DNA of 64,000 nucleotides from positions 62,001 through 126,000 of the forward strand of contig CAJNYD010000012.1 in NCBI GenBank assembly GCA_905331295.1. Direction: 5' to 3'. Within the stretch, counting starts at the first letter, position 1, and each line of letters opens with the position of its first letter. The translations under genes and the position numbers were made by a program. The notes under the pieces were generated by a model. That model searched no databases, had not been told where the DNA came from, and saw only the letters and a list, made by a program, of their open reading frames with translations. The DNA comes from Rotaria socialis. Its lineage: Eukaryota. Shown here in pieces: positions 33,485 to 35,655 of this stretch.

Positions 33485-35655
33485 ATGTCAATTGATATTA
33501 ATAACTCGCAATTGGATATTGACAATCTACTTGAGCGGCTGCTCGAAGGTCTGTTCAATATTATCTTTTTTTGATTAATACTCATAGTTAAATTTCCCTC
33601 TTTTCAAAGTGCGTGAATGTCATCTACCTGACAAGTTTGTTCAAATATCCGAACAGGAAATAAACCTCTTGTGTGAAAAATCGAAAGAAGTCTTCCTCAG
33701 TCAACCAATGCTTCTTGAACTCGAAGCTCCTATCAAAATATGCGGTAATATTATTTACTAGTTCTGAAGCTATCAATAGGTTAACATCTACAAACTTGGA
33801 ATTTTCCATGGAAATCGATTAATCCTAGCAAATATAGTTCTGTATATTCTTTCAGATCGCACACTGAATGCATATTGTAAAGATCGGCGCAGACATAAAA
33901 ATTGCTCGTTTAGATGTTTCAGAATATTTGAATAACACGTTCATTCGGGTATTTTTCACGAATTATCTTCGTTAGGCAATATTCACGGTCAATATACTGA
34001 TCTGCTTCGCCACTTCGAATCTGGTGGCTTTCCACCTAAATCCAACTATCTATTTCTTGGTAACTATATTGATAGAGGTAGACAATCTTTGGAAACAATT
34101 TGTCTTCTACTCGCTTACAAAGTTTGTTGACTTTCTGCACAGTCTAGATCCTATACATTTATTTTATTTTTATTAGACAAAATATCCTGATAACATTTTC
34201 TTACTAAGAGGAAATCACGAATGTGCCTCAATCAATCGTATCTATGGGTTTTACGACGAATGTAAGTATTGATCACATTTTCTACTACAGATACAGTGGT
34301 AAAACTATATCTGAAGGAGTTGTTATCTCCTGATATTCGCCTAGGACCCAGCGAATCTTATTTTGATGTTGCACATGCACAGAAGTAGATCGAGAGTTTT
34401 TGACAATTGTTTACATCGATATCTATAGGCAAACGACGGTACAACATCAAATTATGGAAGTCATTCAATGCCGTCAGTTCAATAAACTCTTTTTCGCTGA
34501 TAAAAATGTTTGTGCATTATCTGTTTAAGTGTTTCAATTGTCTTCCAGTAGCTGCTATTGTGGCCGGCAAAATCTTTTGTTGTCAGGGAGGTAATACTTT
34601 TTCTTTCTTATACTCAATATCTATTTATTGCTTTATTGTCTGAAGGCCTTTCACCTGATCTCCATAGCTTAGAACAAATTCAACAGATTCAACGACCGAT
34701 CGATGTGCCCGACGCTGGTGAGCAATACTTTTAATTCTTTCTACTTTGTTTTGTACTCTAAGAACTCACTGTAATTGCATTGATGCTGTTAAGTTGTATA
34801 AGACTGAACAGCAAAACAGATAAATAATGAGAAAATCGAATACGTCGATCATTTTCATCATTATTTGATTTGCGTCGCCTAGGTCTTCTTTTTGATCTAC
34901 TTTGGTCCGATCCGGACAATGACTTGAAACGTTGGAGTGAGAATGACGCCGGTATTTCGTTTAGATTCGGTGTTGATATAGTAAACGAAGTAAGTTATTA
35001 AACAAATCCTTCTTCAGTCGTTTTTTTTTATAAATGCTACCATATCAGTTTTTGAATCGACATAAGATGGACTTGATTTGTCGAGCACATCAGGTAAGAC
35101 AGTCTAAACAATTTTTTGTATATTTTGCTTCTTGTTAAAGGTCGTCAAAGATGGTTACGAGTTTTTCGCCGATCGCCGATTGGTCACTGTCTTTTCAGCT
35201 CCAGACTATCTTGGTTCATTCGAAAATGCAGGCGCACTCATGTCGGTCGACGCGAATTTAATGTGTTCTTTTATGGTATTCTGCGTTTCTTATTATCAAT
35301 GGTCAAGAGATAGTTCTTAGACGGTTATCAATTCTTGTTCCGACATGACCGCGTCTTAATTTCATCTTGTCCTGATCGAAAATTCGAGATAGATTTTTCA
35401 AAAATAATATGCTAATTCACTTTTTTCGGTTTTGATCCAATCTCAAATCGGTACTCACCTTGTGTTCTTTCTTTTTTATAGATTCTTCATTCAAGTAGTG
35501 AGCAAGCTAATGAACAAGACGATAAGAATCTAAAAGCGGACTGTCAAGCCCAATCTGTCAGTGACAATGTGATCAATCCATCTGTGACGAAAGTGGAAGG
35601 TTGTCAAAAATGTGTGAGCTGGGCTGACATGAACGACAGTGCATCCCCTCAATAA
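33485..35655 (+). CDS. PPP1C: Protein phosphatase 1 catalytic-subunit paralogue, predicted catalytically dead; 11 exons
   Basis: Spliced translation: [13 protein letters not shown]...[29 protein letters not shown]...[25 protein letters not shown]...[33 protein letters not shown]...[13 protein letters not shown]...DLLWSDPD...[11 protein letters not shown]...[31 protein letters not shown]...NLMCSFMI, plus a ~57-aa tail. All introns are GT-AG; no stops. Confidence 0.92.

Follow-up and report, generated by a model that had tools for sequence, protein, structure and literature searches.

A PP1 paralogue of the bdelloid Rotaria socialis, probably inactive, carries a conserved RVxF-type motif in its C-terminal tail and may be latched by it

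The PP1-like gene and its surroundings

The window analyzed here is a 64,000-nucleotide stretch of a contig from Rotaria socialis, a bdelloid rotifer according to a taxonomy look-up. On its plus strand, at positions 33485..35655, lies a PP1-like gene of 11 exons (33485-33548, 33610-33744, 33976-34121, 34177-34261, 34429-34472, 34530-34590, 34646-34717, 34883-34989, 35049-35093, 35141-35275 and 35482-35655). All ten introns have GT-AG ends and the reading frame is open throughout; the 355-amino-acid product is identical, letter for letter, to P0002, a protein whose records are named Rotaria socialis.

Elsewhere in the window there are frames that we take to be transposase-like, several of the hAT type (8974-9525 on the plus strand; 17787-15459, 61793-60860 and 12611-12129 on the minus strand). 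Further minus-strand frames presumably encode proteins resembling a cysteine desulfurase (11410-10131), TRAPPC2 (57562-57092), an SH3/RhoGEF/BAR protein (57003-47602) and a Pro/Gln-rich SMARCE1-like protein (60245-58178). A DnaJ-type gene (24404-25530, plus strand; PF00684) and a PARG-like gene (44082-46545, plus strand; PF05028 for 46027-46278) are also present. An intron-poor metallophosphoesterase-like gene (32044-31207, minus strand; Pfam Metallophos E 4e-4, just under the cutoff) lies about 1.4 kb upstream of the PP1 paralogue, in head-to-head orientation.

The last intron of the PP1-like gene (35276..35481, plus strand, 206 nt, GT..AG) is followed by an exon whose translation starts with ILHSSS. 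The initial annotation had read this exon, with KCVSWAD at 35608-35628, and it was exact in translation, frame and coordinates. Positions 35482..35607 encode the end of the last strand and a linker of 42 residues, poorly conserved, near-constant in length and predicted to be disordered. The RVxF-type motif KCVSWAD (35608..35628, plus strand) follows in frame as residues 341-347 and is the sole match to the loose RVxF consensus within the 355-amino-acid protein.

The acceptor at 35482 has 17 pyrimidines in 20 positions, the best tract among the AG sites listed, and keeps the alignment with PP1 in register (CSFMILH versus CSFQILK). Its use, assumed in the initial annotation, was borne out by spliced contigs of a close relative. 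In run X1, whose RNA nature is a guess and which comes from a genotype other than that of the window, contigs skip the 206 bases GT..AG and join exon 10 to the last exon, the shorter side of the joint measuring 25 letters, below the 31-letter bridging standard. Across the X1 contigs, 8 of the 10 introns are seen spliced out, the last included, and X2 adds one more, which makes 9 of 10. Since homology and the splice joint both support the 35482 exon, read-through of the last intron was ruled out as the true end of the protein. NCBI models of relatives that end by read-through or in another frame (P0143, P0144, P0151 and P0153-P0155) are treated as gene-calling differences.

Over the coding part of the last exon, X1 differs from the window at D312N, N327S, S332P and W345C. 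All four listed differences alter the residue and match P0127; X1 expresses the W-to-C allele. With its open frame, the spliced contigs seen in relatives and its retention across two orders, the gene is an intact, expressed one rather than a pseudogene.

The catalytic domain and its substitutions

By sequence and by fold, the product belongs to the PP1 family. AlphaFold2 gave a poor first model from 44 sequences (mean pLDDT 59) and a second one from 122 sequences in which the domain is good; the domain adopts the PP1 fold, with block pLDDT mostly >80 and a target-normalised TM-score of 0.97 to PP1 chains. Canonical PP1 of the PP1-beta type (best sequence match PDB 1s70_A) has the same fold at this TM-score, is about 70% identical, and shares with the paralogue both the residues of the RVxF groove and the start of the last exon. 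Set against canonical PP1, the paralogue has D64N, D92N, H173Q, R221A, C273L, Y78S and D166A, and its tail has an RVxF-type motif of its own in place of the TPPR that canonical PP1 tails carry and for which an inhibitory role at the active site has been proposed (bioRxiv 10.64898/2026.03.15.711929, in excerpt).

Three of the six metal ligands (D64, H66, D92, N124, H173 and H248, as listed in the available part of PMC4741303) are replaced: D64 by Asn (33978..33980, in GNIHG), D92 by Asn (34062..34064, in GNYIDRG) and H173 by Gln (34584..34586, in CCQGG), all on the plus strand. The paralogue is therefore not an ordinary active PP1c. In addition, the phosphate-binding R221 (role from an excerpt of PMC13737739) is replaced by Ala (34948..34950, plus strand), and this residue is changed in all 8 subfamily rows examined. 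A PPP domain with substituted catalytic residues, here D64N, D92N, H173Q and R221A, is what marks a PPP pseudophosphatase at the sequence level. The D64N mutant of PP1 has served as a dead enzyme with a dominant-negative effect (PMC3930702, in excerpt). Taken together, the four substitutions make phosphatase activity unlikely; inactivity is nevertheless something we infer, because PP1 with D64N alone can still be assayed at high pH, with a pKa of 9.8 (PMC4741303, same part).

A bdelloid subfamily and the order of its changes

A search with the last exon alone returned 9 proteins among 15 candidates, all from Rotaria, and a search with the whole protein added members from R. sordida, A. steineri, A. 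ricciae and A. vaga among the best 120 of 7,894 matches. A profile of the tail found 13 proteins among 2,670 candidates and no new member. The exhaustive profile search gave 8 matches, of which 7 were subfamily tails and one (P0163, E 6e-4) was rejected as an unrelated repeat protein. Two loci retained from 201 pattern matches in a metagenome DNA scan with a single tail were dismissed as chance (54% GC, with no PP1 domain), and the top scores of an ESM Atlas search with the R. sordida tail (0.88-0.90, a calcineurin-named cluster included) fell inside the chance range. The initial annotation had called the tail novel. This has to be qualified for the first ~12 residues, which can be aligned to the beginning of the PP1-beta tail, and stands for the remainder, for which the profile searches found no credible relative outside the subfamily.

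The subfamily has been seen only in bdelloids, where it is kept across two orders, Philodinida and Adinetida; canonical PP1 (P0015) is present in bdelloids as well. In the trees, it forms one clade (support 100/99). A tree rooted on fungal PP1, with catalytic and groove columns taken out, places P0020 of R. sordida as sister to seven metal-deficient rows (91/91, not starred), and a pairing of P0020 with P0019 of A. steineri is weakly rejected (p-AU 0.042). P0020 has all six metal ligands intact, yet carries R221A and the tail motif KHVKWAD. Because this basal member retains all its metal ligands, the motif probably predates the catalytic loss: gain of the tail and loss of R221 likely came first and loss of metal ligands later, an order that one basal taxon suggests. 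P0020 is possibly an active PP1 with its own docking motif.

Conservation of the tail motif

Five deep lineages from Philodinida and Adinetida read KCVSWAD, KCVNWAD, KCVHWGD, KHVKWAD and KYVKWAD at the motif. Only 5 of the 57 tail columns are invariant across them, namely K, V, W and D of the motif and one Ser, while both wildcard positions of the motif vary. Pairwise identity averages 0.24 over the linker and 0.71 over the motif. For three columns named in advance to fall among the 5 invariant of 57, P is about 3e-4, a figure that serves as a guide only because the lineages are related. In a set of ten lineage representatives, from which alleles lacking the Trp were excluded, V, W and D are found in 10 of 10 and K in 9 of 10. 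The environmental relative P0159 reads KRVRWAD.

KCVSWAD agrees with the loose consensus [RK]x0-1[VI]{P}[FW], which occurs in about 25% of proteins (PMC4794898, in excerpt). The same excerpt gives an extended consensus with two leading basic residues, [KR][KR][ACHKMNQRSTV]V[CHKNQRST][FW]; here the last five positions match and a Gln precedes the Lys, so that the full pattern does not apply. Shuffling of the tail produced the loose consensus in 1.6% of 20,000 shuffles, and among 99 other PP1 tails compared it occurs in 3, all in long extensions. The conservation of the motif is stronger evidence against chance than the shuffle test.

The motif is thus conserved inside a region predicted to be disordered and stands out from the variable tail around it, as the initial annotation would have it, with the R. 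magnacalcarata alleles of the same copy as an exception. All six R. magnacalcarata proteins of the window's copy have Cys or Arg in place of the Trp, with the groove kept; KCVSWAD is unchanged in the 8 R. socialis proteins of that copy. Those six are the ones without the Trp among 49 redundant tail sequences, of which 6 more lack the basic residue. The spacing from F293 to the Trp is 48, 48, 48, 46, 48 and 48 in six lineages, despite their low identity; one allele group has a 9-residue deletion in the linker and a spacing of 39. We conclude from these comparisons that the motif is real and selected at the family level, and that KCVSWAD is not a product of chance.

The Ser at the x position had been put forward as a phospho-switch. 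This proposal is weak: Ser occupies the position in 1 of the 5 deep lineages and in 5 of the 10 representatives. With Ser in only one deep lineage, the switch is therefore not general, and a family-wide version of it was rejected given the variability of the position.

The RVxF groove of the paralogue

Exons 9 and 10 (35049..35275, plus strand) hold most residues of the RVxF groove, and all of these are kept (D242, L243, Y255, F257, R261, M283, L289, C291 and F293 in PP1 numbering). Over the complete list, taken from excerpts of PMC9582199 and PMC3387161, 10 of 10 groove residues are kept in the window protein. Near the groove, L266 is Val, and Y78, D166, E167 and E287 are changed.

Nine of the ten listed residues are kept in all five deep lineages, the corresponding figure for background positions being 120 of 196 (p about 0.05). 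The difference is of no more than borderline significance and may stem from the demands of the fold, the comparison having been made without a burial control; among non-groove hydrophobic positions, 52 of 73 are kept. In A. ricciae, 6 of 10 active-site residues are lost and the groove is still kept. R261 and the Asp of the tail are both invariant across the deep lineages; in a solved complex, D89 of PTG pairs with R261 of PP1. Y78 and D166, residues of PP1 that external partners use (sources in excerpt), are lost in 8 of 8 and 7 of 8 rows examined, respectively, and D166 is lost in 4 of the 5 deep lineages. None of the five has lost R96, H125 or Y272.

P0090 of A. vaga is metal-deficient, is annotated without a tail, and has the groove changes R261H, C291Y and M290T. 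This is a single case, and the absence of the tail may be a gene-calling artefact.

Two Rotaria copies and a lost terminal element

Two copies of the gene are distinguished in Rotaria, one comprising P0005, P0006 and P0134-P0138 and the other P0003, P0004, P0124, P0127, P0128 and P0132. The sister copy in R. socialis (P0005, P0006) is annotated with a large internal gap and keeps the motif, while in R. magnacalcarata the Trp is lost in the window's copy and kept in the other. These patterns suggest a reciprocal decay of the two copies. Since the window copy is the sole full-length copy found in R. socialis, it likely carries the function there.

The longer-tailed relatives end in [TI]LYxLYxE[LI], for example with ILYTLY or TLYALY. 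In the window, two in-frame stops are followed by ILHVLY (35653..35679, plus strand; compared with P0019, P0020 and P0159-P0162). As matched by inspection, this is likely a decayed remnant of the terminal element, and the window gene would thus have lost a second conserved element of the tail. P0021 of A. steineri and P0036 of A. ricciae likewise end just upstream of the terminal element.

Possible roles of the tail

The initial annotation had offered three uses for the motif: occupation of the protein's own groove, self-oligomerization, or tethering to active PP1. Its docking premise gains from the splicing-in of the exon and the selective conservation of the motif and loses the phospho-switch; among the three uses, the sequence evidence leans toward action in cis over oligomerization or tethering. 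Our preferred explanation, held with a confidence just short of even, is a self-latched PP1 pseudophosphatase whose K-x-V-x-W-A-D tail folds into its own intact RVxF groove. The 42-residue linker would let V343 and W345 fill two pockets of the protein's own groove, and D347 would pair with R261, as the Asp of PTG does in solved PP1. Tethered in this way, the tail should outcompete most RVxF partners. Without the latch, a dead PP1 would be expected to soak up targeting subunits (compare dominant-negative PP1 D64N, PMC3930702, in excerpt); with it, the paralogue would be uncoupled from the shared partner pool. Such uncoupling probably came first, because the basal member keeps its metal ligands. 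If a stronger partner displaced the latch, the protein would become a scaffold or decoy that acts conditionally, with a released tail that could engage active PP1.

The latch is consistent with K, V, W and D being fixed amid varied wildcards in 5 of 5 deep lineages (and in KRVRWAD of P0159), with a groove kept in all five lineages, even in A. ricciae, and with the joint invariance of R261 and the tail Asp, the pair in contact in the PTG complex. It also fits the loss of Y78 (8/8 rows) and D166 (7/8), which external partners use, the near-constant spacing from F293 to the Trp, and the damaged groove of the one tail-less A. vaga model. The C-terminus of PP1 adjoins the docking surface (PMC12185105, in excerpt), and calcineurin A beta1 offers a precedent. 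On the other side, AlphaFold2 left the tail undocked in both single-chain models (pLDDT <50 from residue 304/305 to 355), a prediction that neither supports docking nor decides against it. The Trp is lost in all six R. magnacalcarata proteins of the same copy, with the groove kept, and X1 has the W-to-C allele; six further tails of the 49 have no basic residue, the second leading basic residue of the extended consensus is missing, groove conservation is borderline, and one allele group has the 9-residue linker deletion. Moreover, the Lys of the motif is kept although its usual partner D166 is gone from the protein's own domain; binding to canonical PP1 therefore fits the Lys better.

This last point belongs to the main rival, which we consider somewhat unlikely: the tail binds active canonical PP1 in trans and the dead paralogue serves as a regulatory subunit, its own groove being kept for a targeting partner, so that active PP1 is linked, through the paralogue, to that partner or to a trapped phosphoprotein. 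All five deep lineages have the Lys, even the four whose paralogue has lost D166, and its register matches that of KGVSF in SCRIB, whose Lys contacts D166 (PMC13737739, in excerpt). The predicted disorder of the tail, the retention of R96, H125 and Y272 in all five lineages and the presence of canonical PP1 (P0015) in bdelloids as a binding target agree with this adaptor role, which would also provide a direct reason for keeping a dead enzyme. However, the protein's own intact groove, 42 residues from the motif, should be a strong competitor for the tail, and the near-constant linker length and the groove damage in tail-less A. vaga fit docking in cis better. A relay that combines latch and adaptor seems rather unlikely to us: the protein would be a latched PP1-derived regulator, in which a targeting subunit enters the groove and the freed tail recruits active PP1. 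The family record would then read as tail gain and loss of Arg221 first, with loss of metal ligands later.

It is improbable, in our estimate, that the motif is functional in the family and a relic here, with the Rotaria copies decaying in turn under relaxed selection on the tail. The loss of the Trp from every one of the six R. magnacalcarata proteins of this copy, the residue-changing nature of 4 of 4 listed X1 differences in the last exon, the stops that cut off the terminal LYxLY element and the internal gap annotated in the R. socialis sister copy (P0005, P0006) all point that way; against them stand an intact reading frame with ten intact introns and the KCVSWAD kept by 8 of 8 R. socialis proteins of this copy, which is also the sole full-length one found in that species and hence the likely bearer of the function. 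A swapped-tail oligomer, with each tail in the groove of a neighbor and dimers or chains of dead PP1 as a possible structural scaffold, strikes us as quite improbable. Like the latch, it relies on the conserved groove and motif, and the linker is long enough, but nothing argues for it specifically and docking in cis should dominate except at high concentration. That the motif is a chance match, or binds something other than a PP1-type groove, we regard as highly improbable, for all that the loose consensus is found in about a quarter of proteins (PMC4794898, in excerpt) and no docking was predicted: the fixed positions are exactly those that define RVxF, the wildcards vary, P0159 reads KRVRWAD, and the loose pattern recurs in just 3 of the 99 other PP1 tails, each time within a long extension.

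Relation to known systems

The nearest mechanistic analogue of the proposed latch is the self-LxVP tail of calcineurin A beta1 (CNAbeta1), likewise a PPP catalytic subunit with a divergent C-terminal tail and a docking-type motif of its own. Its LxVP-type LAVP tail autoinhibits by impeding substrate binding (PMC8523714, in excerpt). CNAbeta1 is an active calcineurin splice variant, whereas the bdelloid protein is a separate, likely dead PP1 paralogue with an RVxF-type motif and a putative action in cis. Nearest in class is PfPPP8 of Apicomplexa, called the first PPP pseudophosphatase in 2023 (PMC10317984, in excerpt), which likewise has a PPP domain whose GDxxDRG motif shows Asp-to-Asn changes. 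PfPPP8 is large and divergent and belongs to the basal complex, and for it the available part of PMC10317984 notes no self-docking motif; the bdelloid protein, by contrast, is a recent, ~70% identical derivative of PP1.

The RVxF-type regulators PTG, GM and SCRIB share with the tail a K-x-V-x-[FW] core followed by A-D; in excerpts of the sources, the PTG Asp two residues past the Phe pairs with R261, and KGVSF of SCRIB is in the same register. Unlike theirs, the motif of the paralogue is fused to the PP1 domain and has one leading basic residue; no SILK or Phi-Phi motif was identified in its tail. Engineered PP1-PIP fusions (PP1-Phactr1 and others) also join partner sequence to the PP1 C-terminus near the docking surface; as described in PMC12185105 (in excerpt), these artificial constructs have catalytic activity and do not include the RVxF motif itself. 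The arrangement was not found described in the mainly open-access literature searched on PP1 pseudophosphatases with RVxF, bdelloid PP1 and dead PP1 paralogues. Judged by its sequence, the paralogue qualifies as a PPP pseudophosphatase that would work like a PPP subunit with a docking-motif tail, the ligand here being a putative RVxF one.

PP1 is among the most conserved enzymes, with a specificity that comes from partners sharing the RVxF groove, and pseudophosphatases of the PPP family have barely been described so far. A natural series is at hand in the bdelloids: a metal-intact basal member, dead members, alleles without the Trp and possibly a tail-less member. If our reading is true, this family would show a catalytic subunit leaving its shared partner pool, or becoming a regulator of its parent.
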